NCBI GenBank assembly: GCA_943350765.1
Contig: CALRAJ010000002.1
Location: 72,951-136,950, forward strand
Source: Candidatus Tayloriibacteriota bacterium
Lineage (GTDB): Bacteria; Patescibacteriota; Minisyncoccia; Phycocordibacterales; PALSA-1337
Direction: 5' to 3'
DNA length: 64,000 bases
The stretch's first letter is position 1; each line of letters begins with the position of its first letter. The notes beneath the pieces are model-generated. The model saw only the letters and a list, made by a program, of their open reading frames with translations. It made no database searches and was not told the DNA's origin. A program made the position numbers and the translations under genes. Shown here piece by piece: positions 36,202-62,354 of the stretch.

Positions 36202-36254
36202 TATCCACAGGACTACTGTGGAAGTACTATACGAATTTAATGTATACTAATGAT

Positions 36255-42491: not shown

Positions 42492-42499
42492 ATAATCAA

Positions 42500-43014: not shown

Positions 43015-43428
43015 ATGAGAAAAAGCTTGTTTTTGATGGTTTGTATCATGGGCATTAGTGTTGTCGGGTGCAAGAGCACTAGCCCACAGCGTGGCTCGAG
43101 TACTATCCTCCCCATCAGGACTACCCCAACAGGGGCAACGGTGCAGACCAACGGGGTGACCGTTGGTGTCTCCCCGCTAGACATTGTCCTGCCGAGAATG
43201 ATTGGTAGGGAAGGCTTGGTCATCAAAATCATCTGTGACGGCTATGAGCCTGTCCTGACCACGGTCGTATCGAGGCTGTCGATGGAAGGGTTTGTATTCC
43301 TCTTCCCGCGTCTGCCTATGGCGATGATACTCGATGTGCCGGCTGGACCAAAGGGCTCGAGCCTCGATCTAATCCCGAGGAGTATAGATATTTCGATGAC
43401 TCCAGTTTCTTTGCCACATGTTGAGTAG
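43015..43428 (+). CDS. PEGA-domain lipoprotein (GC-rich, possibly horizontally acquired)
   Basis: Lipobox ...VVGC; TTPTGATVQTNGVTVGVSP...ICDGYEP resembles PEGA; local GC content is much higher than the surroundings. Confidence 0.45.
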   Translation: MRKSLFLMVCIMGISVVGCKSTSPQRGSSTILPIRTTPTGATVQTNGVTVGVSPLDIVLPRMIGREGLVIKIICDGYEPVLTTVVSRLSMEGFVFLFPRLPMAMILDVPAGPKGSSLDLIPRSIDISMTPVSLPHVE

Positions 43429-43499
43429 CGAGTTCACTACTTGTCACTTTACATCACCCGCACAACTTCAAGTTGGCGGTTTTTATTTTTTAATTTCAT

Positions 43500-43535
43500 A
43501 ATCCCCCGATTTTTGTACTCAAAAATCGGGGGATT
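43500..43535. promoter_or_regulatory. Perfect palindrome upstream of the surface protein gene (P family)
   Basis: AATCCCCCGATTTTTG-tactc-AAAAATCGGGGGATT, preceded by a T-rich tract. Confidence 0.5.
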
Positions 43536-43621
43536 AGGAAAGTTATACACAGTTAAAACAACAGGACTTTTATAAAAAAATGCTACAATTTACTACACTA
43601 ATTTAAGAATACATATTTATT

Positions 43622-44980
43622 ATGATAAAAAATACAGCCTTAGGACTATTTTTATTTTTATTTAGCATTATTGTACTATCTCCGTTTTTAACTTTTGCCC
43701 AGACATCACCAGCATCTACTACCCCAGAAAGTAAGATAACTGCTGTTACTGTAGCCACTGTCAATATCTACGACGCCAAAATTATTTCTCAAAGTGGAAA
43801 TACATTCGCTATTTCCTTCGATATTTCCAACCGAGTCGGTGTGCAGTCTGGTATCAAGTACTCAGTCACACTAGTGAAGCCTAAAACAGGTGATGTTGCT
43901 GATGAACATGTATATAGCGAAGTGTTGGCATTAGGCGAAAACCAAACAATCACAAAGACCATCACATATACAGCGCCAGCATCCGTATCTAGTGGCACAT
44001 ACCAACTCTGGCTCCGAAGCAACAACGACCGAGGTCTCCCTCTAGCCCTAGCCAATCTCGGAAATATCACCATCACATCATCCAATACTCCAAAAGTCGA
44101 TATTCTCGGAGACACCTGCTACCTCACAGTCGATGGAGAGAAGTCTGTCAAGAAATACACCCTGAGACAGGGAGTCGACATTGCGAATACAGAATCATTG
44201 ACCGCTACATGCAAGGTATTCAGTACTATGCCTATTTCAAAAACAACACCGAAAATCTTCCCATTTTTTACCCCCACCTTCGAAACCCATTTTAGAACAT
44301 TGTACGGTGATATTGTTCCTCAAACAGGTGGAGCGACAACTTCGATTGCCATTAGTGCAGGAACATCCACCATATCAGTCAGCCTCCCTAAAGCCTTCAA
44401 GCCACAAGCATACGATGTCCTATTTTCATTAGTCCCTAATAGTTCAGCCAAGGCCACAGTATCAGAATCTAATAAGGTAAACTTTCACTATGTCCTCCGC
44501 GGTCTAAGTGGCACTGTTCAAAACACTGTCTTCGACAAGCTTTCATACAAGAAAGGGGATATAGCCCAACTCCAGATATTTACATCAGAATCCGCTGATA
44601 GTTTTGAACGCTCTCGTGCGGGGTCAGGAACAAAATCAGAGAAACAAAAACTCGATGTCACTGTCACTGATACAGTAGGAATTATATGTGGATCATATTC
44701 AAATAAAGAAACTAGGTTAGATCCACGAGGTAATAATATTGCTATCACTATGCTTGAAGATTGTAATGGGCCAATAGCAAAAGTTACTTTAGGTGCGGCT
44801 GTTGATGATAATTCTGATTTACAAACTCTTGATTCCAAAAGCTTCGAGAATCCACTACCGCTTCCACTGGCTCCTACTCCAGTTAATATAATAAATAAAT
44901 ATACAGTAATATTTTTGGTCGCTGGTTTGTTTATTGTATTAATCGTTTTACTAAAAAAGCGTTTTTATGAAAATAAATAA
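43622..44980 (+). CDS. Cell-surface protein with signal peptide and C-terminal TM anchor
   Basis: Signal peptide LGLFLFLFSIIVLSPFLTFAQ; beta-rich Thr/Ser-rich body; C-terminal TM VIFLVAGLFIVLIVLL + KKRF. Confidence 0.45.
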   Translation: MIKNTALGLFLFLFSIIVLSPFLTFAQTSPASTTPESKITAVTVATVNIYDAKIISQSGNTFAISFDISNRVGVQSGIKYSVTLVKPKTGDVADEHVYSEVLALGENQTITKTITYTAPASVSSGTYQLWLRSNNDRGLPLALANLGNITITSSNTPKVDILGDTCYLTVDGEKSVKKYTLRQGVDIANTESLTATCKVFSTMPISKTTPKIFPFFTPTFETHFRTLYGDIVPQTGGATTSIAISAGTSTISVSLPKAFKPQAYDVLFSLVPNSSAKATVSESNKVNFHYVLRGLSGTVQNTVFDKLSYKKGDIAQLQIFTSESADSFERSRAGSGTKSEKQKLDVTVTDTVGIICGSYSNKETRLDPRGNNIAITMLEDCNGPIAKVTLGAAVDDNSDLQTLDSKSFENPLPLPLAPTPVNIINKYTVIFLVAGLFIVLIVLLKKRFYENK

Positions 44981-47657: not shown

Positions 47658-47849
47658 ATAATTCCATATAACCTTTTTTTAGCAAAATAACCCTATTTCT
47701 AGGGTTATTTTGCTATTATCTTGGCTGTGGATAATTCCACTTGACTTTTATATCATAAAGTAGTATACTGAGGGGTAGGCGAACCTTGACATCAATGAAG
47801 GTGTTTGAGGTTTCTCGTTGAAACTTTAGTCGGAAGTCGGAGGAAATTT

Positions 47850-48752
47850 ATGTACAAAATAGTTGCCACTTTGGCATTACTCTGTGCATGGACAATCCAT
47901 GCCGCAGAGCTACCCAGCTCTCTGCCTGTCGGAGACGACACGGTGAGAGCCTACAGGATAGCTAGTATCCAAAAACTAGTCATCAATCTCCTTTACTCGC
48001 CTACCCCGACCACAAACGGTCAAATGTGGATAATCGGGTACTACCAGACCAACTATATCGCCACAAACGGTGTGGTGAATATGGTGTATGTGAGAGAGGA
48101 AATCAGAAAGTTCGCGGAGTTGGCTCCTAAAAACTCGACCAATGTGTATGCCATCATTGCGGGCTTCAATTGCTCAGGTGGCGATGGAGCTTACGCAGGA
48201 ATGAACTCAGGTGAGTATTCTTGGATAGTAAATCCTGACGGGAGCTATTCGCTCCCAGCTCAGGCGACCAATGCTCCGCTCGTGGAGTATGATTGGACCA
48301 TAATTACTATTCCAGGTATCACTCAAGCCAGAGTAGAGGTGTATTGGCGGGGAAGGGTTGACTACACATGGGACAGTGAGCCTGGTGGTATCAGCACCCA
48401 GCGCGGTGTCTGCGCCTTTCCCACATGGATGCTGACTAGCGACTACGAAGGGGTTATCACTATCTGGTCAAAGTCTGGCACGCAGACTACCCAAACAAGG
48501 TATGATCTCAAGACTGGACAAAGGGAAGTCCCTCTAGTCCTCTCGTCGCCAGTGATGACCTCGCAGGGTATGAGGTTTGTCATTACGGGAAAAGCGGGTA
48601 AAGATGTGTTTGTTCAGCGTTCCAGCGATTTAAAGGTCTGGAATACTGGGACCAACCTGTCAAACCCGACAGGTACGATCACCTTCGTTGATACAGTGGC
48701 TACAGGTACATGTTCCTATTATCGGGTAGGGTACCTGGAGACATCACAGTGA
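47850..48752 (+). CDS. Secreted hypothetical protein (GC-rich)
   Basis: Signal peptide MYKIVATLALLCAWTIHA; elevated GC; ORF-track start is a TTG. Confidence 0.4.
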   Translation: MYKIVATLALLCAWTIHAAELPSSLPVGDDTVRAYRIASIQKLVINLLYSPTPTTNGQMWIIGYYQTNYIATNGVVNMVYVREEIRKFAELAPKNSTNVYAIIAGFNCSGGDGAYAGMNSGEYSWIVNPDGSYSLPAQATNAPLVEYDWTIITIPGITQARVEVYWRGRVDYTWDSEPGGISTQRGVCAFPTWMLTSDYEGVITIWSKSGTQTTQTRYDLKTGQREVPLVLSSPVMTSQGMRFVITGKAGKDVFVQRSSDLKVWNTGTNLSNPTGTITFVDTVATGTCSYYRVGYLETSQ

Positions 48753-48781
48753 TCCGTCGCACAGGGTTGTGCAGCGGATTT

Positions 48782-48870
48782 TTTATTGCAATTGTGGATT
48801 CATCCCCGACGGCTTGCCGCGGGGATGAATCCGCAAGAATGAGGATGAAGTCGGCGGAGCCGACACTACT
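48782..48870 (+). ncRNA. Structured element E copy 2, bracketed by two terminator hairpins
   Basis: Preceded by gcacagggttgtgc + T-tract (48755-48785) and followed by terminator 48913-48960. Confidence 0.5.
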
Positions 48871-48912
48871 ACATCCGCTCAATTCTGATTGAGCGAGCAG
48901 TAGTCGTATGAC

Positions 48913-48960
48913 GATTCCCCCGAAATTGCAGTAGCAATTTCGGGGGAATCGGATTTTTTT
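48913..48960 (+). terminator. Rho-independent terminator (P-family palindrome plus T-tract)
   Basis: gattcccccgaaattgcagtagcaatttcgggggaatc followed by ggattttttt. Confidence 0.8.
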
Positions 48961-48971
48961 CTGTAAAAAAC

Positions 48972-49028
48972 ATAACGGCTCAACAGAGCCATTCTCATCG
49001 GCTAAACCCCGTGTTTAGCCGATGATAC
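48972..49028. repeat. Degenerate H-family pair (GGCTCAAC half plus GGCTAAAC...GTTTAGCC hairpin)
   Basis: acggctcaacagagccat ... atcggctaaaccccgtgtttagccgatga. Confidence 0.6.
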
Positions 49029-49127
49029 TTTTGGGTAAAAAAACATGGTGCCAGAGGTATATACGCCATGGCGTATATACCTCTGGTTTTTTGTAATTCT
49101 GTTTATAATGTGCTACTATATCTATGT

Positions 49128-50654
49128 ATGAAAAAAATAATAACATCTATCGTCGGCGTCTTTGTGTTATCAATAATGCTGTTTCCTCTGGTATCTACCG
49201 CTCAAATCAATCCTCCACCAGAGGATGTAGTATTGCAGGCACAGATAGCATCTCTTTTGGCTCAGATTAAACGCCTACAGGAGCAACTCGCACAGTTGCA
49301 GGGCGGTTCGGGACAGTTTTGTCATGATTTTAATACAAATCTAAAAATATACTCTAGTGGCGATGAGGTTACCGCACTTCAGACGGCTCTTACGAAAGAG
49401 GGTATTACGCTCAATATTTCTGGTTCATTCGATAGATTTACTGAAACTGCTGTCAAATGGTTTCAGGAAAAATATAGTGGTGAAGTACTGACTCCATCAG
49501 GATTAACACGAGGTACAGGCTTTGTGGGTGTTAGTACTCGTGCAAAACTCAATCAGCTTTATAGGTGTGGTAACAGTGGCTCTTCTCTCCGTGTCATCTC
49601 ACCAAACGGTGGCGAGTCATGGCAGTTGGGAACTACGCAGACTATCAGGTGGAATGCTCCGCAGTATTTTAGAGCAACTTACGCAGATATTTCTTTGGTG
49701 CCTTATTATCCAGATAGGGTGTGTACAGGTACAGTGTGTCCAATGGAAGCTCAACAGTCAATGCGGTATCCATATCAAGGACCGTACACGATTGCTAACA
49801 GTGTAAGTATCAATCAGAATTATTATAGCTGGCCTGTGGGTAGGTATATCATAGGCTATGTGGCGCATGGCGAGGTATCAAATCCGACAGGTATTGTTCC
49901 TAATGGTCAATACAAAATAAAAATCTGCGAAACTGGGACATCAAACTGTGATACTAGCGATAATAATTTTACTATCACTGATAGTCCCCAAGCGAGTATT
50001 TTTCCAGCTGTACTAAATCCAGCTGTAGTTTCAGAATACTATCGTCAGGAGCTTACTATAGACAACGCTTCATCAGCAGGTTTATATCTAGCAGCAGGTG
50101 AGCTTCCTCCTGGGCTTCAGATCATATCAATGATTCCGTCTTGTGCTTATCCACCTGCTGGACAAGTAGCCAATACTTGCTCTGGACAATCTACCATTCT
50201 CGGTACGCCAACCACAGCAGGTTACTATACTTTCACTATCTCTAACAGAAACCCAAGTGCATCGAGAACATATACCCTCAGAGTTAGTCCATCAAACAAC
50301 AACAATCGCACTATCAGTGTCATCTCACCAAACGGCGGTGAAACTTGGAGTATGGGATCTGCTCGCCAAATCATCTGGAATTATTTAAATGCTACTTTAG
50401 ATAGTAGGGTAGATATGTATTTACTAACCAATTATGCCTGCCCAACAAATTATTCTCCGACAGAAATCGTTTGTGTGCCAAATGGGGAAAGAGTCCTCGA
50501 TAAAGATATTTCTGCCAGTGCAATCTATAATTGGGTCGTCGGTACAGATACAGTAGGCAATTATGTACCAACAGGAAGCTACAAGGTTAAGATTTGTGTA
50601 GCTGGTACTTCGGATTGTGATACGAGTAATGCTTCGTTCACTATTACAAATTAG
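49128..50654 (+). CDS. Secreted protein with a peptidoglycan-binding domain and two Kre9/KNH-like Ig domains
   Basis: Signal peptide; PG_binding_1-like GDEVTALQTAL...AVKWFQ; repeats ISPNGGESWQLGTTQTIRW and ISPNGGETWSMGSARQIIW. Confidence 0.55.
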   Translation: MKKIITSIVGVFVLSIMLFPLVSTAQINPPPEDVVLQAQIASLLAQIKRLQEQLAQLQGGSGQFCHDFNTNLKIYSSGDEVTALQTALTKEGITLNISGSFDRFTETAVKWFQEKYSGEVLTPSGLTRGTGFVGVSTRAKLNQLYRCGNSGSSLRVISPNGGESWQLGTTQTIRWNAPQYFRATYADISLVPYYPDRVCTGTVCPMEAQQSMRYPYQGPYTIANSVSINQNYYSWPVGRYIIGYVAHGEVSNPTGIVPNGQYKIKICETGTSNCDTSDNNFTITDSPQASIFPAVLNPAVVSEYYRQELTIDNASSAGLYLAAGELPPGLQIISMIPSCAYPPAGQVANTCSGQSTILGTPTTAGYYTFTISNRNPSASRTYTLRVSPSNNNNRTISVISPNGGETWSMGSARQIIWNYLNATLDSRVDMYLLTNYACPTNYSPTEIVCVPNGERVLDKDISASAIYNWVVGTDTVGNYVPTGSYKVKICVAGTSDCDTSNASFTITN

Positions 50655-50906: not shown

Positions 50907-53402
50907 ATGGCAAAGGAAAAAGATGACAAAATAGTCCCTGAAAATGAGGGGGTAGTACCCGAAGCTGTCCGTGGAGTGGTCAATAGAAATATCACTACCG
51001 AAATGCGTGAGTCGTACCTAGACTACGCCATGTCGGTGATCACTTCTCGTGCTTTGCCCGATGTCAGAGATGGTCTAAAGCCCGTGCATCGACGCATACT
51101 TTTTGCGATGAATGAAATGGGTCTCACTTCGTCGTCGCGTTTTCGAAAGTCAGCAACTGTAGTGGGAGAAGTACTAGGTAAATACCACCCACACGGTGAT
51201 GTAGCTGTATACGAGTCCATGGTCAAAATGGCTCAGACTTTTTCTTTTAGATATCCACTTATACTCGGTCAGGGAAACTTCGGCTCTATAGACGGAGACG
51301 GTGCTGCAGCACACAGATATACTGAGGCAAAGATGTCTCGACTTTCCAGCGAGCTTCTAAAAGATATCGAAAAAGATACGGTAGATTTTCGACCAAACTA
51401 CGATAATACCAAAAAAGAGCCGACCGTACTTCCTTCAGCTGTACCCGCTCTGCTTTTAAACGGTACTCTCGGTATTGCTGTCGGTATGGCAACAAATATC
51501 CCTCCCCACAATCTAAAAGAAGTGGTAGATGCGACTATCCACATGATTGAAAACAAAGACGCATCTACGGAAGATTTATTACAGTTTATAAAAGGTCCAG
51601 ATTTCCCAACAGGTGCTGTGATCTATGGCGAAAAAGACATTCAGCACGCCTACTCGACAGGTCGTGGAGGTATTGTCGTGCGTGGCGAGGCAGAGGTTAT
51701 TGAAGACAAAAAGGAAAACTTTCAAATCATCATTACTTCTATTCCTTATCGTGTAAACAAAGCCGAGCTGATTATGCGTATTGCTGACCTAGTACGAGAA
51801 AAGGAAATCGACGGTATCAAGGGACTTAGAGATGAGTCTAGCAAAGACATTCGCATCGTAATCGACCTAAAAGGTGGGGCGCATCCACAAAAAGTTTTAA
51901 ACTATATCTACAAACACACCCAGCTCGAGGAAAAGTTTCACCTCAATGTAGTGGCACTTGTTGATGGTGTACCAAAAACGCTTTCACTCAAATCAATACT
52001 AGAGGAGTTTGTATCCCATCGAGTGATCGTGGTTCGTCGTCGTACCCAGTTTGATTTAAACAAAGCCGAGGAGAGGGAGCACATTTTACTTGGTTTGAAA
52101 AAGGCACTAGACCATATCGATGCTATTATCAAGCTTATCCGTGCATCCAAAGACGCTCCAGAGGCTCATAAAAATCTGATGAAGGAGTTCAAGTTTTCAG
52201 ACAAACAAGCTACTGCTATCCTAGAAATGCGTTTGCAAAAGCTGGCTGGACTTGAGCGTAAAAAGATTGAGGACGAGCTAATAGAAGTGCAAGCTCTGAT
52301 TATCGCACTCAAGGAGATCCTAGGTAGTCCTAAAAAGATTTTAAGTATTATCAAAGACGAGCTTCGGGAGATCGCTACCAAATACGGTGATGATAGACGC
52401 ACAAAGGTAGTCAAGAGAGGTGTGCAGGCGATGTCTGATGAGGATCTTATACCCGATGTTGACTCAGTGCTAGTTTTGACCTCGGGTGGATATATCAAAC
52501 GCACTGCCCCAGAGGAATATCGCAGACAAAAGCGTGGGGGAGTAGGTGTGGTTGATCTGGATACAAAAGAGGAGGATTTTATTACTCATATTGTCAATGC
52601 CAACACTCACGCCGATCTACTTTTCTTTACAAACAAAGGCAAGGCGTACCAGATCAAAATGCACGAAATTCCCGAAGGGAAACGCGCTACCAAAGGCAAG
52701 TCAGTAGTAAACTTTATTCAAATCACTGATGATGAGCGGGTTACCTCTATCTTGCCGATGTCAAAAGAGGTAAAGAAAAGCGGACTAAGCCTCTTTATGG
52801 TTACTAAAAATGGTGTAGGTAAAAAGGTAAATGCTGAGTCTTTCCATGATGTTCGACGAAGTGGTCTGATAGCTATCGGTCTCGACTCAGGAGATAGTCT
52901 GGTCTCAGTGCGGTTTGTGGAAAAAGGTGATGATCTAGTGCTGGCTTCGAGTGAGGGTCAATCTATTCGTTTCAAGGAGTCTGATATTCGAGAGATGGGT
53001 CGTACTGCTATGGGTGTGATCGCGATGCGACTGGAAAAGGATGATATGGTGATTGGAGCCGAAGTGGTCAAAAAGGACATGAAAAATCCAGCCCTACTGG
53101 TAATCATGGCCAACGGCTATGGTAAGCAGACTGAGCTTTCTGAATACAAGACCCAAAAGCGTGGTGGCTCTGGTGTGCTGACTGCAAAGATAACCAGTAA
53201 AACAGGAAAAGTTATCACTTCTAGTGTGGTAGAAAGCGGGGAGTCTGTCGAGGAAGTGGCGGAGCTGGTGGCTATTTCAAAAAAGAGTCAGGTGATTCGT
53301 TGTGATATAAAGGAGATACCAGTCCTAGGTCGTCAGACTCAAGGTGTGCGTATTATGCGACTTCGAGAAGGGGATTCTCTAGCGAGTGCGGTGTGTCTGT
53401 AA
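50907..53402 (+). CDS. gyrA: DNA gyrase subunit A
   Basis: [28 protein letters not shown] active-site region (catalytic Tyr context), C-terminal beta-pinwheel repeats. Confidence 0.95.
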
Positions 53403-53405
53403 TAG

Positions 53406-53536
53406 ATTAAAATACCTTTCTGGGTATATTTTTTTGAAAGCACGAGTATTTTTCTGGTGAAAAATCTCTCAAGTCTCAGCTACCCGCTTCCGAAGTCTTT
53501 CAAAAAGATATACCCAGAAAGGTATTTTAATTCGGT
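53406..53536. mobile_element. MITE-like element copy 5 (subtype A)
   Basis: TIR aaaatacctttctgggtatat / atatacccagaaaggtatttt (perfect); subtype A core. Confidence 0.8.
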
Positions 53537-53620
53537 ATAAATTAAGTTTTATCTATATGTCTTTTCAGAAATATAGTCTCCAGCAAAGGCATATTTTGAC
53601 TTGATTGCTTATGTGGTATA

Positions 53621-53762
53621 CCCCAAATTACGAAATACTGTCGCAGGCGTATCTTTTAATGGGGGTTCGCAGGCGGGTAGCCGAGATTTCAGGAATTTTC
53701 TACCAAGAAAATATCCGTACCCTTTAAAAGATATACCCAGAAAGGTATTTCGTAATTTGGGG
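53621..53762. mobile_element. MITE-like element copy 6 (subtype B)
   Basis: Perfect TIR ccccaaattacgaaatac / gtatttcgtaatttgggg; core matches copy 4. Confidence 0.8.
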
Positions 53763-53806
53763 TATTAATGAGAAAAATATCATTTATTAGAGGCATATTT
53801 TACCTC

Positions 53807-53847
53807 AACGGCTCAATGCTTTTATCCTAAAAGCATTGAGCCGTTGC
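53807..53847. repeat. H-family hairpin variant
   Basis: caacggctcaatgcttttatcctaaaagcattgagccgttg. Confidence 0.7.
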
Positions 53848-53900
53848 CTTCTCCACAGGTGCTATTTGGTATACAGTGGTCACTACTGTATAATATAAGT

Positions 53901-54416
53901 ATGTTTTCAAACCCAGAACATAATGTTGATCAGTTTGACATATATCCTGGCATGTCTATCGCAGACTTTGGTGCGGGGTCTGGATACTATACTATTGCTG
54001 GGGCAAAAGCAGTGGGTGGATCAGGTAGGGTCTACGCGATAGAAGTCCAAAAAGATTTGCTAGAGAAAATCAAATCACAGGCGACACATCAACATCTACA
54101 AAATATCGAGTACATCTGGGGAGATATCGAAAAGCTCGGTGGTACTCGTATAAAAGATGCGTCTATCGATCGTGTGATCGCTTCCAATGTCCTATTTCAG
54201 CTCCATGACAAAAAGTCTTTTTGTAATGAGATAAAGAGAGTGCTCAAGCCTGGTGGCAAGGCACTCTGTATTGATTGGTCGGATACCAGCCCGCTCGGTC
54301 CACAGTCTCTCATAACCACAGAGACAGCAAAGGAGCTTTTTCATTCGGCGGGTTTTGCATTTAGTTCATCAATAAATGCGGGAGATCATCATTATGGGCT
54401 TATTTTTATAAAATAA
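53901..54416 (+). CDS. Class I SAM-dependent methyltransferase
   Basis: Motif I IADFGAGSGYYTIAGA; extended -10 box tgtataat at 53887-53894 just upstream of the ATG. The ORF-track start at 53844 is a TTG inside the hairpin repeat. Confidence 0.7.
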   Translation: MFSNPEHNVDQFDIYPGMSIADFGAGSGYYTIAGAKAVGGSGRVYAIEVQKDLLEKIKSQATHQHLQNIEYIWGDIEKLGGTRIKDASIDRVIASNVLFQLHDKKSFCNEIKRVLKPGGKALCIDWSDTSPLGPQSLITTETAKELFHSAGFAFSSSINAGDHHYGLIFIK

Positions 54417-55705
54417 TGAAAGCTTTTCAAACAATTTTACTTGGTATATTTATTTTTTTTATTATTGTCGGTGTAGCATTGTTTGCAACCATGAAAAGCA
54501 AATCCTCAGGTGATGAGCTAGCACCCATAGTTCTCTGGGGTACGGTATCATCTGAGATATTTGAGCAATATCTGAGCAAATTAAATCTATCGCAAGAGCA
54601 AGAGTTAAATGTAACTTATATAGAAAAGCGTGCGGAGTCATTTGATCGAGAGTATATCGAGGCACTCGCTCGTGGCTATGGTCCAGATGCTATCTTGCTT
54701 CCACAAGATTTGATTTTGCGACATTGGGATACTATTTTACCTGTACCGTACGAGGCTTTTACGGAGAGGGATTTCAAGGATACTTTTATACCTGAGGGGG
54801 AGATGTACTTGACTTCAGCGGGGATATTGGCGTTTCCGTTTAGTATTGACCCACTTGTGATGTATTGGAATAGGGATAGCTTTACCAATGCGGGACTGCC
54901 TACTTACCCAAAGACATGGGCGGATATCAGCAATCTCACCAAATCATTGACCAGTCGAGATGTTTCTTCAAATGTCAGCAGTAGTGCTGTGGCACTTGGA
55001 GAATTTAAAAATATAAATCACGCCAAGGAGATTTTGAGCGCTTTGATCATGCAGGCAGGCAATCCTATCGTGACTATTGACTCACAGAATACAATAAACA
55101 ATCTACTCGCCGATAGGCTGGGCTATGCGGTATCGCCGACAGAGACAGCCCTCTCCTTTTATACCAAGTTTTCAAATCCTGTTGATCCTCTTTATTCATG
55201 GAATAAGTCTCTCTCGTCGTCTAAAAACTCATTCTTGAGTGGCAAGCTCGCTACCTATTTTGGTTTCGCATCGGAGTTGGCAGATATCAGAAATAAAAAC
55301 CCAAACATAAACTTTGATGTAGCACTCTTACCCCAAGCGTTGAATGCTAAAAATAGAGTAACTTTTGGTACCATGCTCGGTCTGGCTATTGCAAAAAGTA
55401 CTGGCGATAGTACCAACACCTTCGCCGTAATATCAAGTCTTTTTACACAGTCATCTATTGCTATATGGGCGGATACCACAAAACTTCCGCCTGTTCGTAG
55501 AGATCTATTGCTCACACGCCCACAAGATCCCTACCTTTCGGTATTTTATGATTCGGCACTTATCTCAAAGGCGTGGTTAGATCCACGGCGAGAGCAGACC
55601 GATACTATTTTCCAAAATATGGTCGAATCGGTCATTAGTGGTAGGAGTCGTGCGTCTGAGGCAGTGAGTACCGCAGGTCAGCAGATGGATAATCTCTTAG
55701 AATAG
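54416..55705 (+). CDS. Extracellular solute-binding-protein-like protein with N-terminal TM anchor
   Basis: N-terminal TM; periplasmic-binding-protein-like size and pattern (weak); start overlaps the upstream stop (TAATG). Confidence 0.35.
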   Translation: MKAFQTILLGIFIFFIIVGVALFATMKSKSSGDELAPIVLWGTVSSEIFEQYLSKLNLSQEQELNVTYIEKRAESFDREYIEALARGYGPDAILLPQDLILRHWDTILPVPYEAFTERDFKDTFIPEGEMYLTSAGILAFPFSIDPLVMYWNRDSFTNAGLPTYPKTWADISNLTKSLTSRDVSSNVSSSAVALGEFKNINHAKEILSALIMQAGNPIVTIDSQNTINNLLADRLGYAVSPTETALSFYTKFSNPVDPLYSWNKSLSSSKNSFLSGKLATYFGFASELADIRNKNPNINFDVALLPQALNAKNRVTFGTMLGLAIAKSTGDSTNTFAVISSLFTQSSIAIWADTTKLPPVRRDLLLTRPQDPYLSVFYDSALISKAWLDPRREQTDTIFQNMVESVISGRSRASEAVSTAGQQMDNLLE

Positions 55706-55711
55706 CTATAT

Positions 55712-56161
55712 ATGTCATTTTTTTCACTTACGGATTCTCAAAAAAGACTTTGGCGAGGGGGAGTGACTTTTTGTCTGGCACTTTTTCTATTACTTGCCCC
55801 AGTACTTGTTTTACACGCTCAGGTTACAAGTGGTACTGGACTGGTGCCGTGTGATGGTCCTAGGTCGGTGGCTGGGTCTGATGCTCGTACCTGCAACTTT
55901 CAGACTTTGATCAAAGGTCTGGAGGAGATTATAAAATGGATGTTTATTATCGCTATTCCACTTTCACTTGTTTCCTTTGCCTACGCTGGTATTCTTTTTA
56001 TGTCAGGCAAAGAGGCAAATATCAGCACGGGCAAGGAGATATTTACAAAGGTCATCTGGGGACTAGTCTTTATGGCGGGTGGCTGGCTACTCGTCCATAC
56101 TATTGTCGGTGGTCTACTTGATCCAGATAAGGGTTTTCGACCTTATTTCTTTGGTATATAA
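55712..56161 (+). CDS. VirB2/TrbC-like small membrane protein, paralog 1 of 5
   Basis: Signal peptide, Cys pair, then TM-charged loop (SGKEANISTGKE)-TM hairpin. Confidence 0.5.
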   Translation: MSFFSLTDSQKRLWRGGVTFCLALFLLLAPVLVLHAQVTSGTGLVPCDGPRSVAGSDARTCNFQTLIKGLEEIIKWMFIIAIPLSLVSFAYAGILFMSGKEANISTGKEIFTKVIWGLVFMAGGWLLVHTIVGGLLDPDKGFRPYFFGI

Positions 56162-56168
56162 TATCTTT

Positions 56169-56543
56169 ATGATAGCAAAAATGACACAAAAATATAAAAG
56201 TATGCTAGTGGCAGGGTTTGTCATGATGGTGCTGGTGTCTGTGGGTATTGTCTCCGCGGCACCCGGCGATGGCTCGGCTGGTGTGACCAATCCTATCAAA
56301 GCCAATACTATCCAAGACCTTATTTTTCAGCTGGCAGATATTGTGCTGACCATAGCGGTGCCTGTATCGGCGATATTGCTTATATATTCTGGGTTCCTTT
56401 TTGTAATGGCGAGGGGCAATGAGTCTGAGGTAACCAAAGCAAAAGAAACATTTCTGTGGACTGTGGTCGGTATAGCAGTACTTTTTGGAGCTCGCTTCTT
56501 GTCAGAGATAGTTCGTGGTACAATAAATCAATTAAAAGGATAA
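56169..56543 (+). CDS. VirB2/TrbC-like small membrane protein, paralog 2
   Basis: Signal peptide, then TM-loop (RGNESEVTKAKE)-TM. Confidence 0.5.
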   Translation: MIAKMTQKYKSMLVAGFVMMVLVSVGIVSAAPGDGSAGVTNPIKANTIQDLIFQLADIVLTIAVPVSAILLIYSGFLFVMARGNESEVTKAKETFLWTVVGIAVLFGARFLSEIVRGTINQLKG

Positions 56544-56559
56544 TTATTATTTAGCATAT

Positions 56560-57006
56560 ATGCAAAAATGTATAATGTTTCTAGGTCGTATGGGTGTTGT
56601 TTTAGGAGCTACTTTACCAGTGTTTGCTTTGGCTCAGGAGAGAATAAGTACATTTGAGGGTTTGGTAAACAAGTTTATCAATATAATACAACTGGTTGTA
56701 CCGCTCATCTTTGCTATCGCTCTGGTGGCTTTTCTCTGGGGGATTTTTCAGTACTTCTTCTCTGGAGAGGAGAAGAAGGAGGAGGCAAAGAGTTTTTTAC
56801 TCTATAGTCTCATCGGACTTTTTGTGATGGTTTCTGTGTGGGGTTTGGTAAGAGTTTTGACAGGCACTTTTGTTTTGGATACTACTATACCAGATTATCC
56901 GTCATTGAGGGGTGGGGGAGGGAGTGGTACTCAGCCCATTAATTATGTAAACCCAGGTACAGATTTATTTCCTGGCGGTGCGGGACTACAAATAAGACCT
57001 AATTAA
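56560..57006 (+). CDS. VirB2/TrbC-like small membrane protein, paralog 3 (Gly-rich tail)
   Basis: Signal peptide, then TM-loop (GEEKKEEAKS)-TM; close paralog of 57157-57543. Confidence 0.5.
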   Translation: MQKCIMFLGRMGVVLGATLPVFALAQERISTFEGLVNKFINIIQLVVPLIFAIALVAFLWGIFQYFFSGEEKKEEAKSFLLYSLIGLFVMVSVWGLVRVLTGTFVLDTTIPDYPSLRGGGGSGTQPINYVNPGTDLFPGGAGLQIRPN

Positions 57007-57156
57007 CGACAACTTAAATTAAAAGTGTATTTATAATTGTTTGGCACATCTTATCCACAGTTATATTTGTAGACTTATTTAAATGTGATAGTATTAGTAT
57101 ATAGACCTCGTGTCCCATTATTAGAAATTATTATTAAGAAGTAAAATATACATATT

Positions 57157-57543
57157 ATGAAAAAAGCGTTACTAGCCATTTCAGCGTTTGCACTTCCAGT
57201 ATTTGCGTTTGCAGCTACAGCACAATCATTCAATACTCTTCTAGTAAAGTTTAATAGCATTCTAAACGCTATTATCCCATTTATTATTGCTATCGCAGTT
57301 GTATTTTTCATCTGGGGAGTATTTCAGTACATGATTGCAGGAGATGAGGACAAGAAGAAGGAGGCAAAGGGTATGATTTTATACGGTATTATCGGTATTT
57401 TTGTGATGGTTTCAGTATATGGATTGGTAAATATCCTAGTCAGAACACTTGATTTGGAAAATAGTATTATACCAGGCACGATTCCAACAGTTCCAACGAG
57501 GGCAAATAACAGTGGAGCTAGTAATACTCAGTTAGGTGCCTAA
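57157..57543 (+). CDS. VirB2/TrbC-like small membrane protein, paralog 4
   Basis: Signal peptide MKKALLAISAFALPVFAFA; TM-loop (GDEDKKKEAKG)-TM. Confidence 0.55.
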   Translation: MKKALLAISAFALPVFAFAATAQSFNTLLVKFNSILNAIIPFIIAIAVVFFIWGVFQYMIAGDEDKKKEAKGMILYGIIGIFVMVSVYGLVNILVRTLDLENSIIPGTIPTVPTRANNSGASNTQLGA

Positions 57544-57573
57544 TAGCTAATAGATAAAGCAATAAGTATAAAA

Positions 57574-57855
57574 ATGTTTGGAAAGTTTATCTCTGTAGCT
57601 GAAGCCAGTGCCGTATCTGACATGATGGGTCGGGTCAATGTTGCGATACTCAACCCCATCATGAAGCTTTTGTTTGCTCTAGCCTTTCTCTATTTTCTAT
57701 ATGGTGTCGCAGTGTACTATTTAAATCCGCTGGATACAGAAAAAAGAGCAGAGGGCGGGCAACATATTCTCTGGGGACTGGTCGGGCTGTTTATAATGTT
57801 TTCCGTGTACGGTATCATCAGACTAGTTTTGGGAACATTCGGGATTCAGTATTAG
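57574..57855 (+). CDS. VirB2/TrbC-like small membrane protein, paralog 5
   Basis: TM-loop (NPLDTEKRAEGGQH)-TM. Confidence 0.45.
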   Translation: MFGKFISVAEASAVSDMMGRVNVAILNPIMKLLFALAFLYFLYGVAVYYLNPLDTEKRAEGGQHILWGLVGLFIMFSVYGIIRLVLGTFGIQY

Positions 57856-57875
57856 GTTTGTCGGGTAGGTAGAAT

Positions 57876-57920
57876 AAAAAACAAAAAGCTTTTATCATAT
57901 GATAGAAGCTTTTTGTTTTT
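57876..57920 (+). terminator. Terminator after the pilin-like array
   Basis: aaaaacaaaaagcttttatcatatgatagaagctttttgttttt. Confidence 0.7.
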
Positions 57921-57940
57921 AAATTTTGAATAAATAAAAA

Positions 57941-57990
57941 AGAAAAGCCGGGGTTTGAGATGTGATCTCAAATTACCCGGCTTTGTTGTT
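57941..57990 (-). terminator. Terminator for the minus-strand gene 57999-58640
   Basis: gccgggg-tttgagatgtgatctcaaa-ttacccggc nested palindrome, followed on the minus strand by a T-tract. Confidence 0.65.
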
Positions 57991-57998
57991 TGAACCGT

Positions 57999-58640
57999 TT
58001 AGATTGCCTTGAAGGCAATCTCGAACTGCACTGGCTCGCTCGCAGTAAAGCGTATCGCCCTTGGTAAGGCTTTTTCGCCTTCTCGCCTCGGGTGCCAGAC
58101 CTCACTACTGTCCTGCCACTCGATCTTCACACTGTTTGGCACATCCGCCACGATCCTGCGAAGGAGAGGGACCGTCTTGACGATGACCTGCCCAGCCTTC
58201 ATCGTGATGGTTTCTGACAGGTACTGACCATGTGCCATCCCGTTGCTGGGTACCGTTGTGTAGGTGACTGGTCCGGTGTTTACAGTGCCACCAACGCTCA
58301 CTACGGCGCTGTCGTTTGCGAGGATGGATGTCACTGAACCATCGGTTGCAACCGGGCTGTTGGTCGAGACACCTTCAGCCTTTGTGATAGGTGCAGGAGC
58401 TTTGGGCTCCTCGTTGGTCGAGGCTTGGGGCGGAGGTGTGGTGGATATAGACGGGGTTGCATTCTGAGCCATAACCCCAATTTTGCTACCCCACTTCAGC
58501 CAGCATCCACCACTCACAAGTGCCACCATCATCATGCTGATCAGGATGACTCGCCACCAGTTGGCGGGTACTGCGGGCTGGGCTGCCTGGGCGGGTACAG
58601 CCTCTTTTGCTCCGCTTAGCAATTTCCAAATGAATTTCAT
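57999..58640 (-). CDS. Membrane-anchored hypothetical protein in a GC-rich island
   Basis: N-terminal TM; Pro/Ala/Thr-rich linker; GC content is far above the window average. Confidence 0.4.
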   Translation of the reverse strand: MKFIWKLLSGAKEAVPAQAAQPAVPANWWRVILISMMMVALVSGGCWLKWGSKIGVMAQNATPSISTTPPPQASTNEEPKAPAPITKAEGVSTNSPVATDGSVTSILANDSAVVSVGGTVNTGPVTYTTVPSNGMAHGQYLSETITMKAGQVIVKTVPLLRRIVADVPNSVKIEWQDSSEVWHPRREGEKALPRAIRFTASEPVQFEIAFKAI

Positions 58641-58921
58641 AGATTTCCTCTTGTTTGATTTCTTCCAACACCACCCACAATGGGTAGTCCCTCACACTGT
58701 TTGCGTATTGTTCACAGATAGAGGAGAGGGGAGGCTTTGTGAAGTATCACCTCTTCTCTATCTGTGTTGTTTTGTGCCAAAGAGCTAAAATCTATCCTCT
58801 CATACCATTATAGCATACTATATACCTACTTGTCAAGCGTTTATATATAATATGGCTTAGTTGAGCCAGAAAGATTGTTTTCACGATAAGTGGAGATGTT
58901 CGATTTTTGCTTATGATCTAA

Positions 58922-58950
58922 ATAAAATAAAAAGCCATCATTTGAGATGG
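58922..58950 (-). terminator. Terminator downstream of the receiver-domain gene
   Basis: gccatcatttgagatggc hairpin with a T-tract on the minus strand. Confidence 0.55.
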
Positions 58951-58979
58951 CGACAACTAGTAAGGTGTGGTATTTCGGT

Positions 58980-59360
58980 TTAGGCAACCTCAGCTTCGAC
59001 ACCCTGTATCTTGTCTGGTATAGCCTGTGCCACGATGTGAAATAGGCTGTCCCATGTAGACACCGTTCGTAAAAATAAGGGATGCAAAGAAGAATCATCC
59101 GAGTCAATACTTGTCAGAATTACTGGTGTTTCTGGAGCATTTACGGCTAGCCAGTCAATCAGATCAGTGTTAGAGGGGTGGTCGCAGATCGCAAGGTCAA
59201 AATCAACACCACAGAGGATTTTATCCTTAGCACTACTACCGTGCTCGAAAGTAGTAACTGTGGCACCAAAACTCTCAAGCGCCTCCCTGAGTGCATACCC
59301 AAGGTTACCATTAGCATTTACCACGACCACCCGTGTTCCGCCATTTAATTTTTTTGCCAT
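58980..59360 (-). CDS. Orphan CheY-like receiver domain protein (GC-rich)
   Basis: RVVVVNANGNLG...DFDLAICDH receiver-like pattern; no output domain. Confidence 0.45.
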   Translation of the reverse strand: MAKKLNGGTRVVVVNANGNLGYALREALESFGATVTTFEHGSSAKDKILCGVDFDLAICDHPSNTDLIDWLAVNAPETPVILTSIDSDDSSLHPLFLRTVSTWDSLFHIVAQAIPDKIQGVEAEVA

Positions 59361-59439
59361 ACCTCACCCTTTGTTTTTTTGTTTTCTACCCTGTACCGAC
59401 TAATAGTAAATCATATAGGTGGAGGTCATGCAAGGATTA

Positions 59440-59700
59440 GTCGTGGGTGGGAGAGGGAGAGGAAGAGGAATCTTTCCCCTTACAGGGGCAGTATCCCGAT
59501 TGGGTTTTTTATTTGCGAGTACGCTTTACAAAACCTCAATCGGGCTTCAAGTCCTCTCCGCAAGTCGAACACAGAGCGGGAGAGGAGTCTTTTTCCTTAC
59601 AGGAACGGTTACCGTCGCTGGACTTTTTTTTGCTTGATTACAAGCTCAAAAAAGTGCTCAGCGAGGCTTCAAGTCCTCTCCGCAAAGCGTTCCACGCTTT
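59440..59700. repeat. Two tandem ~125-bp repeat units, each ending in a tRNA-Leu T-arm-like segment (GGCTTCAAGTCCTCTCCGCAA)
   Basis: Units gggagaggaagagg...ggcttcaagtcctctccgcaag and gcgggagaggagtc...ggcttcaagtcctctccgcaaa; 15-nt match to the tRNA-Leu(UAG) T-arm/acceptor in inverted orientation. Confidence 0.6.
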
Positions 59701-59737
59701 GCTCCCGGCACAAAAAAATCCCTTTCGGGATTTTTGA

Positions 59738-59822
59738 TGGTGCCGGGGAGAGGACTTGAACCTCCATGAGTTACCTCGCTTGCTCCTAAGGCAAGTGCGT
59801 CTGCCAATTTCGCCACCCCGGC
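59738..59822 (-). tRNA. tRNA-Leu (anticodon UAG), type II, CCA encoded
   Basis: Reverse complement: GCCGGGG..., anticodon arm CTTGC-CTTAGGA-GCAAG, long variable arm, T-arm GGAGG-TTCAAGT-CCTCT, CCCCGGC-A-CCA. Confidence 0.85.
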
Positions 59823-60010
59823 GTGTATTATCGAATTATTTCTATTGATTGTGGTCACGAATATTTTGCTCGCCGTCGCTCACAAAATTTCTCGACCCCG
59901 ACTCGTCAATATTTCTTGCTAGAAATATTGCTCCGTCTCGCACAAGTCTCAAAAAATCTACAGCCGTGTAAATTTTTATTTTTGTGGACCACAACTTTTT
60001 CACTTCGTGA
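59823..60010. repeat. Element B (homolog of element A at 15978-16140) between tRNA-Leu and tRNA-Lys
   Basis: tttgctcgccgtcgctcacaaaa...cgactcg...ctccgtct...tttttatttttgtggacc. Confidence 0.55.
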
Positions 60011-60118
60011 ACTCAGTGAAAAGTCGCAGCCCCCGCCTCCTTTCGCTCTGCTCCAGTCCGGCCCGCACATTGCAAAGAAAATTGTCGAGGATTGGGACAA
60101 TTTTTAATATTTGCAATG

Positions 60119-60191
60119 TGCGCCCAGTTGGAGTCGAACCAACGACCAATCGCTTAAGAGGCGAGTGCTCTACCAGCTGAGCTATGGGCGC
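60119..60191 (-). tRNA. tRNA-Lys (anticodon CUU)
   Basis: Reverse complement: GCGCCCA-TA-GCTC-AGCTGGTA-GAGC, anticodon arm CTCGC-CTCTTAA-GCGAT, T-arm GTTGG-TTCGACT-CCAAC, TGGGCGC-A. Confidence 0.85.
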
Positions 60192-60253
60192 AGGTATGAC
60201 TAGCGCCTAGAGAATATAACAAATTTTTATAGGATTGGCAATAAGGGATATTT

Positions 60254-60340
60254 TGGTGCTCGAGGTGGGAATCGAACCCACACGACCTTGCGGTCAACAG
60301 ATTTTAAGTCTGGCGCGTATACCAATTCCGCCACTCGAGC
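60254..60340 (-). tRNA. tRNA-Leu (anticodon UAA), type II, CCA encoded
   Basis: Reverse complement: GCTCGAG..., anticodon loop CTTAAAA, variable arm GTTGACCGCAAGGTCGTGT, T-arm GTGGG-TTCGATT-CCCAC, CTCGAGC-A-CCA. Confidence 0.8.
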
Positions 60341-60402
60341 GTGTAAGGCAGTTGTGTGTCAAATGACTAAAATATTTTGCGATTTAGCAAAATCTTTAGG
60401 GA

Positions 60403-60476
60403 GGCGTAGGCCGGGATCGAACCGGCGCATAACAGTTTTGCAGACTGTCGCGTTGACCAGCTTCGCCACTACGCCG
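60403..60476 (-). tRNA. tRNA-Cys (anticodon GCA)
   Basis: Reverse complement: GGCGTAG..., anticodon arm ACAGT-CTGCAAA-ACTGT, T-arm GCCGG-TTCGATC-CCGGC, CTACGCC-U. Confidence 0.8.
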
Positions 60477-60496
60477 TGGTTAGCGAGAGTATAGCA

Positions 60497-60823
60497 TTAT
60501 TGAGTATTATTTGAAATACGATCTATCTTTTGGCGGTTTTTCTCGCCACCATCTATAATAAAGTCAAAAAATGGTATTCGCATCAATCGAGAGTTATCCT
60601 TTACATATTGTCTAAACTCACTTCTTTTTCTTCTTACAAAATCAAGTACTCCCACCTCCTTGTTTTCAGGAAAAACCGAGAATAAAATCCTTGCACTTTT
60701 ACCATCGTCAGAAAGCAATACATCAGTAACAGTGATGAGAGAGATATGGTTGGACTCCATTTGTAGAAACTTTGCAGCAAGGCCCTTTATGATTTCTTTT
60801 ATTTTTTCATTGCGTACTTCCAT
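60497..60823 (-). CDS. rbfA: Ribosome-binding factor A
   Basis: KH-like 108 aa; typical infB-rbfA arrangement. Confidence 0.75.
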   Translation of the reverse strand: MEVRNEKIKEIIKGLAAKFLQMESNHISLITVTDVLLSDDGKSARILFSVFPENKEVGVLDFVRRKRSEFRQYVKDNSRLMRIPFFDFIIDGGEKNRQKIDRISNNTQ

Positions 60824-60827
60824 GGGT

Positions 60828-62354
60828 TTATTTGGTTACTGTTCGATATGACTCTATTTTGTCGCCGATAGCTATCTCGGTTTTGGATTCTATCATGGTG
60901 CCAAATTCGTAGCCCATATTAACCTCCTCTGCACGGACTTTTTGCTGTTGGAGCTCCTTTATTTTGCCTCGCCCAATCTCCACATCTCGTCGCAATATTC
61001 GCACATCGCCTCCGAGAGTAACACTTCCTTCTTGGACTTTACCACCGAGTATTTGACGATCTTTATTTTTACTAAAGACACGAAGGATTTTAGCCTTACC
61101 TGTGCTTTCTTCTACCTGAATCTTTGGGGTACGCAGGGAGATGACTTCCTCAAGGTATTCTATGAGTTTGTAGATGATATTGTATAGCTCAACTTTTATT
61201 TCCATTCTTTCTATAGCACTTTGGGCCTTTGGATCAACTTTCACATTGAAGCCGAGTATGAGTGTTCCTGGGATACCGCTTGCTGCCTTGATGTCACTTT
61301 CAGAAATATCACCAACACCTTCATGGATAACTCTCACGACTACCACACTGTCTTTACCTCGTGCATCTGAAATCTTTTTAAATTCGTGATGAATTGCTTC
61401 TAGGCTACCACCAGCATCAGCTTTTATCACTATCGGTATAATGATTTTAGTATCATCAAACTGGGCATAAGTTTTTGACGGATTTATATTTTGTGTATTT
61501 TTATCTGCGTATGCATCCGCCTCCTTTTTAGTTGAAAAGGCATGAAAGAGCGCTCCTGCAACTGGCATCGTACAGAGACCGATTATTTTTATAGGCATTG
61601 ATGCGGTAGCTTGGGTTACATTTTTACCCTGAGCATTTTCGAGCATACGAATAGGGGATACTACTCCGTCTATCACAGCAAACATTTGAGTTTTGAGTTC
61701 ACCGTCTTTTACTATCAAGGTCGCTGAAACACCCTTCCTTTTGTCTAAGGTTGCTTCTAGTATTACGCCGTGGGTCTGACCCTGTGTATTTGCAGTAAGT
61801 CCTTCGAGGTCTGACATGAGTACAATCATGTCTAGTAGAGCAGGTATACCCTCGCCAGTGATAGCTGACACTGGGACAGCTGGTACAGTACCACCGTACC
61901 CCTCGATATATATTTCATTTTCAGCTAGAGCTTGTTTTGTCTTTTCAACATTTGCTCCCGGCTTATCTATTTTTGTCATTGCTACTATGTATGGAGTCTT
62001 GGTTTCCTGAATACATTTGAGTGCCTCTAGGGTTTGTTTTTTAACTCCATCCTCAGCTGATATTACAAGTATCGCGATGTCTGCTACATTTACACCTCGA
62101 GTACGAATACCACAAAACGCTTCGTGTCCAGGTGTGTCTAGGAAGGTAATAGTTTGAGGTTTTCCTGACTCATCTGCATGTGCGACTTCATAGGCACCGA
62201 GGTGTTGGGTAATCCCACCAGCCTCTTTGTCTGTAATATTTATTTTTTTGATATAGCCTAGGAGGGTGGATTTGCCATGATCAATATGACCCATGATAAC
62301 TACCACAGGTGGTCGAGGAGAGAGCGTCGGCTTTTGTGGGGTAGTTTTTTTCAT
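60828..62354 (-). CDS. infB: Translation initiation factor IF-2 (short form lacking the N-terminal domains)
   Basis: G1 [22 protein letters not shown]; C-terminal beta-barrels. Confidence 0.92.

Follow-up and report, generated by a model that had tools for sequence, protein, structure and literature searches.

A tandem array of five VirB2-like (PF18895) pilin genes at a conserved chromosomal locus of Paceibacteria

Tandem arrays of divergent genes for VirB2-like pilins (VirB2 is the major pilin of type IV secretion systems, T4SS) have been described across the Patescibacteria. In the survey by Quinonero-Coronel et al. (2025; PMC12102498), 3,035 Patescibacteria genomes, among which 2,474 virB4 genes were counted, were surveyed with PF04956 and PF18895; VirB2-like genes were present in 1,948 assemblies that also carry VirB4, lying near virB4 in only 1,135 of these, and 441 arrays of 2-11 pilin genes were recorded in 383 assemblies, with a mean identity of about 25%. 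An array is defined there as at least two VirB2-like genes, in tandem or with one non-pilin gene between them, in a Patescibacteria genome. The subject of this report is an array of five adjacent genes, here called P1 to P5, that fits this definition. It lies in a stretch of 64,000 nucleotides (hereafter the window) of contig CALRAJ010000002.1, positions 72,951 to 136,950, assembly GCA_943350765.1, from a Taylorbacteria-like genome of the class Paceibacteria in the Patescibacteria (candidate phyla radiation). Identical DNA occurs in ENA metagenome contigs of up to 124 kb and in a metagenome-assembled genome (MAG), GCA_943354485.1, which is absent from the supplementary tables of the survey. 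The window array resembles the surveyed arrays in PF18895 together with PF04956 similarity, tandem divergent genes, a chromosomal location, no relaxase and, often, a position away from virB4. Tandem divergent VirB2-like genes away from virB4 are, in short, already described for the phylum, and in this sense the window array is ordinary.

The only such array with experimental evidence is that of Southlakia epibionticum ML1, where SEML1_0014-0019, a run of six tandem PF18895 genes with products of about 125-140 aa, were essential in transposon sequencing (Tn-seq) and lie directly beside VirB6-, PrgI- and VirB4-like genes, with neither a solute-binding protein (SBP) gene nor a methyltransferase gene (Wang et al. 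2023; PMC10633639). The window array shares the tandem PF18895 genes, but here no T4SS gene was seen within tens of kilobases. A recent review speaks of pilus formation in Patescibacteria only as a "potential" (PMC12857230). Among systems outside the phylum, the TrbC/VirB2 pilins (RP4 TrbC, Agrobacterium VirB2) have the same long signal peptide, two helices, short charged loop and length of about 100-150 aa as the window proteins, to which they show weak but repeated hidden Markov model (HMM) similarity. However, these are Gram-negative systems with one major pilin, whereas the window array has five distinct subunits and a monoderm host; neither cyclisation nor a TraF-type maturase was seen here, and similarity to the solved pilins is undetectable by sequence or fold search. 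The Mbov_0395 protein (NF045849) of integrative and conjugative elements of Mycoplasma is likewise a small two-helix protein from a monoderm lineage, but it is encoded on a mobile element that carries a complete conjugation module, unlike the array here. Bartonella and Anaplasma also carry several tandem virB2 copies per genome, which are read as antigenic or host variants, whereas the copies here are orthologous types in fixed order.

The biological interest of such arrays is that Patescibacteria depend on host cells and that a T4SS-like system with its pilin array is essential in the one species that is genetically tractable. The window array is categorically nothing new, but the comparative data given here sharpen the question of what these pilins build and why there are several of them. 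The added value is modest and lies in a linkage to an SBP gene, a quintet in fixed order, fused forms and a promoter motif; the text of PMC12102498, as far as available, makes no mention of SBP linkage or fused pilins, and fixed-order orthology was not found in the passages of it that were covered.

Family assignment and architecture

By profile similarity, the products of all five genes are VirB2-like pilins of PF18895 (T4SS_pilin). P2, P3, P4 and P5 score 37.9, 47.2, 44.2 and 29.8 bits, respectively, all above the gathering score of 26.6 bits. P1 taken alone scores 17 bits, under the gathering score, and is counted as a family member because hhalign aligns it with a profile built from 40 members (probability 96%, E 4.5e-9) and because 32 of the 33 positional orthologues of P1 in related genomes match PF18895. 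Moreover, in a profile-profile comparison the P1 orthogroup matched the P2 orthogroup with a probability of 99.6% (E 1.6e-23). All 86 P4 homologues found were PF18895 proteins or closely similar, and one of them carries the NCBI name "pilin [Candidatus Paceibacterota bacterium]".

The link to the classical TrbC/VirB2 family (PF04956) appears weaker but is repeated. P2, by these scores the array member nearest to classical TrbC, falls just short of the gathering score of 27.9 with its 25.6-26.7 bits (E 6e-6 to 1.5e-5); P3 and P4 reach about 17-18 bits, and P1 and P5 gave no match to this model. At E <= 0.01 the model is matched by 25 of 34 position-2 orthologues, with a best E of 7.1e-10, and by 9 of 33 position-1 orthologues. 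Among NCBIfam models, NF045849 is the best match for P2-P5 (27.9, 29.5, 29.2 and 23.1 bits; E 1e-5 to 4e-7), all scores being under the family cut-off of 40 bits, and P1 does not match it; the match is in line with the MPF-FATA ancestry reported for the T4SS of Patescibacteria.

All five open reading frames (ORFs) are intact. Gene starts in the array were taken from gene callers on identical public contigs, which start P2 at an ATG where the mechanical ORF opens at GTG 56079. By hydropathy, P1-P4 each have a hydrophobic N-terminal segment with an AXA-type end, then two long hydrophobic helices with a charged loop of 10-14 residues between them. P5 has only the two helices and lacks a signal peptide, and P3 ends in a Gly/Pro-rich tail of about 45 residues. 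Cleavage-like motifs picked out by eye in P1-P4 are LHA/Q, VSA/A, ALA/Q and AFA/A (the slash marks the presumed cut), signal peptides having been judged from hydropathy and AXA motifs. An AlphaFold2 model of P4 built from 60 homologues (mean predicted local distance difference test score 76) contains a signal helix at residues 3-21 and a helical hairpin formed by residues 25-60 and 64-102. The VirB2-type architecture, a cleavable signal peptide followed by two helices and a short polar loop, is, by these predictions, found throughout the array, save that P5 is without the signal peptide. P3 and P4 are 47% identical; the remaining pairs share 22-37%.

These results bear on an earlier note on this DNA, made from the letters alone, which had described five consecutive plus-strand genes of 93-149 aa with a shared two-helix layout. 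The ORFs and hydropathy bear this out, and on the topology that it asked to be checked, hydropathy gave a signal-peptide-like segment plus hairpin in P1-P4 and a hairpin only in P5. Its claim that the genes are VirB2/TrbC-like, and not type IV pilins, is upheld by the PF18895 scores and by the PF04956 matches among P2 orthologues; the PF04956 check itself gave a divided answer, favourable for the orthologues and unfavourable for the window's own P2, which stops just under the gathering score. Type IV pilin was considered as an identity and rejected: no N_methyl or prepilin model matched any of the five proteins at E <= 1, and by hydropathy the N-termini are ordinary Sec-type, without a prepilin motif.

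Conservation of the locus, positional types and fused forms

Gene order across relatives indicates that the array is part of a conserved core-genome operon in a housekeeping region. An alignment of the SBP encoded just upstream of P1 was scanned against one genome per GTDB species, giving at least 447 loci with a relative, of which the best 80 were fetched and their pilin arrays detected by the family HMM over all ORFs. The nearest SBP relatives are in MAGs labelled Candidatus Taylorbacteria, Paceibacterota or Parcubacteria. In every fetched locus with DNA downstream of the SBP gene, a pilin array follows directly, and the 60 arrays uncut by a contig end divide into 36 of five genes, 15 of six, 4 of four, 3 of two and 2 of seven. 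P4 homologues on long contigs share a block made up of S1, an MBL-fold gene, gyrA, a methyltransferase gene, the SBP gene and five or six PF18895 genes; gyrA is upstream in 54 of 58 loci, and the tRNA cluster, close behind the array, is followed by rbfA and infB. The order of the array genes does not change between species, even though their SBPs share only 43-74% identity. Elsewhere the window encodes housekeeping proteins of the kind expected in a reduced genome (LepA, MurC, ValS, TsaD, FtsZ/FtsA, GyrA, IF2).

The two upstream partners are a class I methyltransferase (Pfam Methyltransf_31/11/25, E 1e-16 to 1e-19) and the SBP, which matches PF13416 with 47.5 bits and PF01547 with 35.8 bits and whose relatives in the PDB are sugar-binding SBPs. 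The methyltransferase gene end overlaps the SBP gene start in the window; among related loci, 75 of 79 have a methyltransferase gene immediately ahead of the SBP gene, and in 23 the two overlap by 4 nt. The SBP gene has no neighbouring gene for an ABC permease or ATPase. The methyltransferase, the SBP and the array are probably co-transcribed partners. A PADLOC search with these two proteins and those of the GC-rich island downstream gave nothing relevant save a generic methyltransferase match.

One sublineage departs from the common layout. In two loci (L059, L071) the SBP gene is followed by pilin types 1 and 2 alone and then by unrelated minus-strand genes; three more (L078, L040, L062) show the same two-type state, yet are cut by contig ends. 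Types 3-5 may be elsewhere in these genomes or may have been lost.

Across the 36 five-gene arrays, all from different species, a pilin's best BLAST hit in another genome came from the matching array position 167 times out of 180 (93%), and the median identity within an array is 29%. Individual positions also have features of their own. At positions 1-4, 31-35 of the 36 orthologues show three hydrophobic segments, and at position 5, 35 of 36 show only two. Position 1 carries a nearly invariant pair of cysteines (C47 and C61 in P1) at the mature N-terminus, bracketing a loop whose length runs from about 8 to 45 residues across species (alignment A6); the arrangement is reminiscent of a disulfide-bounded variable receptor loop. 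Because orthology follows position and because these features are position-specific, the five paralogues appear to be old, non-redundant types in fixed order.

The wider family supplies a second line of evidence. A HMMER search of 1.84 billion representatives (clusters at 50% identity) yielded 36,770 family members at E <= 1e-3, and many of the top matches are single polypeptides with 2-8 matched stretches. The six fused proteins that were read (P0087, P0088, P0096, P0126, P0140 and P0199) consist of a single signal peptide ahead of tandem units that short linkers connect, each unit comprising a first transmembrane (TM) helix, a charged loop and a second TM helix, and they extend up to 820 aa and about 16 TM helices. 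Two-unit fusions also occupy position 3 of two syntenic arrays (L090:12275-13210 and L066:13567-14304). By the Rosetta-stone argument, such fused forms imply that the units would sit side by side in one assembly and in the same orientation. Fixed order, individual conservation, occasional fusion into one chain and the constant pairing with an orphan sugar-type SBP speak more for a heteromeric structure of definite make-up than for spare variants kept in reserve.

What the array may build

The explanation that we think probable is that the array encodes five co-assembling VirB2-like (PF18895) subunits of a chromosomal, non-conjugative T4SS-like apparatus typical of Patescibacteria. P1-P4 would be exported by Sec and cleaved by signal peptidase I, for which the window has a candidate gene at 28184-28855 (from reading the translation, not from an HMM), and P5 would insert unaided. 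Each subunit would then lie in the cytoplasmic membrane as a helical hairpin, N-out, loop-in and C-out, before being drawn into one heteromeric surface or trans-envelope structure, with assembly probably driven by a VirB4-type ATPase encoded elsewhere in the genome. P4, preceded by a promoter-like spacer, would be the likely major subunit, and P1, with its Cys-bracketed variable loop, a likely exposed or specialised one. The co-transcribed methyltransferase and the membrane-anchored, sugar-type SBP may aid recognition or use of host-cell material.

A number of results weigh against this explanation. VirB4, VirB6, VirD4, VirB3/PrgI and TrsD were not seen in the 64-kb window (translations and a Pfam scan of 19 proteins), in which the unassigned ORFs gave zeta toxin, T5orf172, histidine kinase, a transglutaminase-like giant protein, a Gly-rich domain and a peptidoglycan (PG)-binding domain. 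T4SS genes were also not seen in the 10 kb to the left, which hold only pentose-phosphate genes and MurJ, or in the DNA rightwards to the contig end. In the 80 related loci no T4SS gene is a repeated neighbour within 10 kb; there, clustering of all ORFs of at least 250 aa identified GyrA, S1, IF2, a HisS-like protein and similar proteins as the only recurrent neighbours, and no VirB4-sized P-loop protein was found beyond ClpB, ABC ATPases and SMC. Hence the searched region has no pilin gene encoded together with VirB4 and channel components, as a T4SS cluster would. Moreover, the window's own proteins are all under the Pfam TrbC gathering score, fold searches with the P4 model returned generic helical hairpins only, and searches of PDB sequences with the family profile and the position-2 profile retrieved no solved conjugative pilin; structure comparison is uninformative here, as is to be expected for a bare helical hairpin. 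To our knowledge, a PF18895 pilus has been seen in no organism, and we know of no counterpart in known T4SSs to the universal linkage to an orphan SBP.

From the same observations one could argue that pilin-like hairpins have been exapted into a membrane complex that acts with the adjacent SBP, independently of any T4SS ATPase, as an anchor, channel or sensor for host-derived carbohydrate, with no extracellular filament at all. In all related loci with downstream DNA the array comes directly after the SBP gene, the SBP has no adjoining ABC permease or ATPase, its closest solved relatives bind sugars, VirB4 is absent within 10 kb in 80 genomes, and fusions with 4-16 TM helices resemble polytopic membrane proteins. 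Such a system would, however, be without precedent; PF18895 proteins are found inside the Southlakia T4SS cluster, where they are essential and where there is no SBP; the sequence similarity to TrbC/VirB2 has to be accounted for; and a shared neighbourhood alone shows no physical link between SBP and pilins. We regard this alternative as fairly unlikely. A bolder version, to which we would give a still smaller chance, holds that the methyltransferase, SBP and pilin block is a distinct apparatus found in much of the Paceibacteria, a heteromeric assembly with a fixed set of five subunits that is physically coupled to the SBP and senses or imports host-derived material and does not secrete. A DnaA-box-like promoter element would place it under common control with large surface proteins. 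If true, a T4SS-pilin scaffold would have been repurposed for import or host recognition.

It has also been proposed, for Bartonella and Anaplasma, that tandem paralogues are interchangeable variants of one pilin that serve host-range switching or surface variation, and PMC12102498 suggests the same for Patescibacteria arrays. The low median identity within arrays and the variable loop between the conserved cysteines of P1 would suit this idea, but we find it very unlikely for the window array, given the position-specific orthology in 167 of 180 best hits, the per-position features such as a P5 without signal peptide in 35 of 36 genomes, an order that holds across species with such divergent SBPs, and the covalently fused multi-unit forms, all of which speak for old, distinct parts and not for copies that diversified recently. 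The reading of the earlier note fares worst. Its description of the neighbours (an SBP-like membrane protein, a GC-rich island and a four-tRNA cluster with tRNA-fragment repeats) is accurate, and it took them to suggest a relic, or an unconventional mobile or surface-filament system. That the array is a decayed conjugative or integrative element, or else a set of generic small membrane proteins unrelated to secretion, strikes us as barely credible. T4SS machinery is indeed not nearby, and the island and the repeats do lie downstream; nevertheless, the gyrA-methyltransferase-SBP-pilin block is syntenic in all related genomes fetched, set among housekeeping genes in many species (S1, MBL-fold and gyrA upstream; the tRNA cluster, rbfA and infB downstream), the five ORFs are undamaged, the family HMM matches are significant, neither integrase nor relaxase was seen in the window on reading the translations and scanning 19 of its proteins with Pfam, and the two genes of the island, having no homologue in 80 related loci, point to a separate insertion. 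Nor are five paralogs without a visible VirB4 unusual, as had been thought, since arrays of this kind are published and, in PMC12102498, the pilin gene is near virB4 in only 1135 of 1948 assemblies. We therefore retain co-assembling subunits of a T4SS-like apparatus as the preferred explanation.

Putative transcription signals and surroundings of the array

The gap ahead of the penultimate pilin gene has a median of 104 nt, compared with 4-14 nt for the other gaps, and a spacer of about 100 nt occurs at this place in nearly all arrays. In the window this is the P3-P4 spacer (Table 1), where a perfect DnaA-box sequence precedes promoter-like elements. A DnaA-box-like octamer, TATCCACA, is present in the spacer in a large minority of genomes, and its density in these spacers is about 85 times that in all other DNA of the 1.22 Mb of loci; in every case it points forward, at a distance of 75-125 nt from the ATG, and in about a dozen spacers, counted by eye, it stands 29-32 nt upstream of a -10-like hexamer. 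An alternative spacer motif, GGTCGT, is found in 14 of 57 spacers against 0.6 expected, and ATTATTAG occurs in the presumed leader of others. An Rfam scan of 53000-61000 left the spacer empty, only four tRNAs being above the gathering score.

A related layout precedes the methyltransferase gene, where TTCTCCACA, one mismatch from TTATCCACA, is followed by a putative promoter with 10 of 12 consensus matches; the pattern TCCACA-N28-32-TANAMT matches at this place. The orthologous methyltransferase gene has a similar layout upstream in about 9 of 76 relatives; the box-to-(-10) layout was not found in the upstream regions of gyrA, IF2 and S1 of the relatives. The methyltransferase ATG is only 6 nt past the -10 TATAAT, as it is in some relatives (L019, L022), and the mRNA may be leaderless; the mechanical ORF starts further upstream, at TTG 53844. 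The arrangement suggests an operon promoter and an internal promoter for P4-P5. With a spacer and putative promoter of its own, P4 may be the major subunit; it is also the best-scoring member against the family HMM in almost all arrays and, with P5, among the best conserved, which makes it our candidate for that part.

Generic scans were uninformative: they gave 19 promoter-like sites where 12.2 +/- 3.7 would be expected, and 2 terminator-like sites where the expectation is 3.7. The inverted repeats between the convergent P5 and 213-aa genes were not flagged by the terminator scan, and a terminator role for them is conjectural. TCCACA was rejected as a general promoter element, the 64 kb containing only two TCCACA-N28-32-TANAMT matches.

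Table 1. Features of the array, its operon partners and its flanks (window positions)
Feature	Position	Strand	Description
Putative operon promoter	53849-53894	+	TTCTCCACA box 53849-53857; -35-like TTGGTA 53866-53871; -10 TATAAT 53889-53894
Methyltransferase	53901-54416	+	Class I, S-adenosylmethionine-dependent, 171 aa (public gene call); first gene of the conserved block
SBP	54416-55705	+	SBP_bac_8; extracellular solute-binding protein with N-terminal TM anchor, sugar-binding (MalE/UgpB-like) type
P1	55712-56161	+	149 aa; divergent VirB2-like pilin, predicted signal peptide and two TM helices
P2	56169-56543	+	124 aa; VirB2/TrbC-like pilin, predicted signal peptide and two TM helices
P3	56560-57006	+	148 aa (alternative start: 143 aa); VirB2-like pilin
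P3-P4 spacer	57007-57156	+	Conserved intergenic spacer, putative internal promoter
Spacer elements	57051-57094	+	TTATCCACA 57051-57059; -35-like TTGTAG 57067-57072; extended -10 TGaTAGTAT 57086-57094; leader of about 55 nt (sequence reading)
P4	57157-57543	+	128 aa; VirB2-like pilin, canonical MKK...AFA/A signal peptide (predicted)
P5	57574-57855	+	93 aa; shortest VirB2-like unit, two TM helices, no signal peptide
Inverted repeats	57877-57991		Between convergent P5 and 213-aa gene; possible terminators
Palindrome	57877-57920		22 nt, perfect centre (repeat search)
GCCGGG...CCCGGC	57937-57991		Followed by a T-rich run (repeat search)
Four tRNA genes	59738-60475		Leu-tag, Lys-ctt, Leu-taa, Cys-gca
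tRNA-Leu(tag)	59738-59822		

Further perfect copies of TTATCCACA lie at 36201-36209 (+), 47726-47734 (-) and 48025-48033 (-). One copy sits shortly 5' of the likely start of the gene for a 2103-aa surface protein (ATG 36255, after a terminator hairpin), and another shortly 5' of a TTGACT-N17-TATACT promoter of the gene for a secreted 300-aa protein (ATG 47850); the box could be a regulatory site common to surface-protein genes. Both genes belong to a block of about 15 kb (36180-50654) between the MBL-fold gene and gyrA, which encodes large secreted or surface proteins of 2103 aa (transglutaminase-like core), 452, 896 (Gly-rich domain), 300 and 528 aa (PG-binding domain). Parts of this block are common only to the closest relatives (L012, L013), and in distant relatives (L006-L008, L092, L093) the MBL-fold gene and gyrA are almost adjacent.

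Downstream of P5, a GC-rich stretch at 57999-59360 has two minus-strand ORFs, one of 213 aa with a TM segment and a Pro/Thr-rich region and one of 126 aa with a weak receiver-domain match; GC content is 0.50 at 58001-59000 and about 0.40 elsewhere. Since the 80 related loci contain no homologue of either gene, the stretch is best read as a separate strain-specific insertion that parts P5 from the conserved tRNA cluster. An exact direct repeat of 21 nt, GGCTTCAAGTCCTCTCCGCAA, at 59543-59563 and 59665-59685 resembles a tRNA T-arm or 3' fragment; 14 nt of it recur, inverted, in the T-arm of tRNA-Leu(tag), and these copies are consequently not classical att duplications.

Elsewhere in the window, overlapping ORFs of 168 and 172 aa at 30479-31500 appear by eye to be the frameshift-split halves of a putative IS630/Tc1-type transposase, and a small candidate defence island at 4451-6729 encodes a zeta-toxin-like kinase (PF06414, E 9e-32), a weak HEPN/AbiU2-like protein and a T5orf172 protein that matches the PADLOC candidate system PDC-S57 (E 2e-64).

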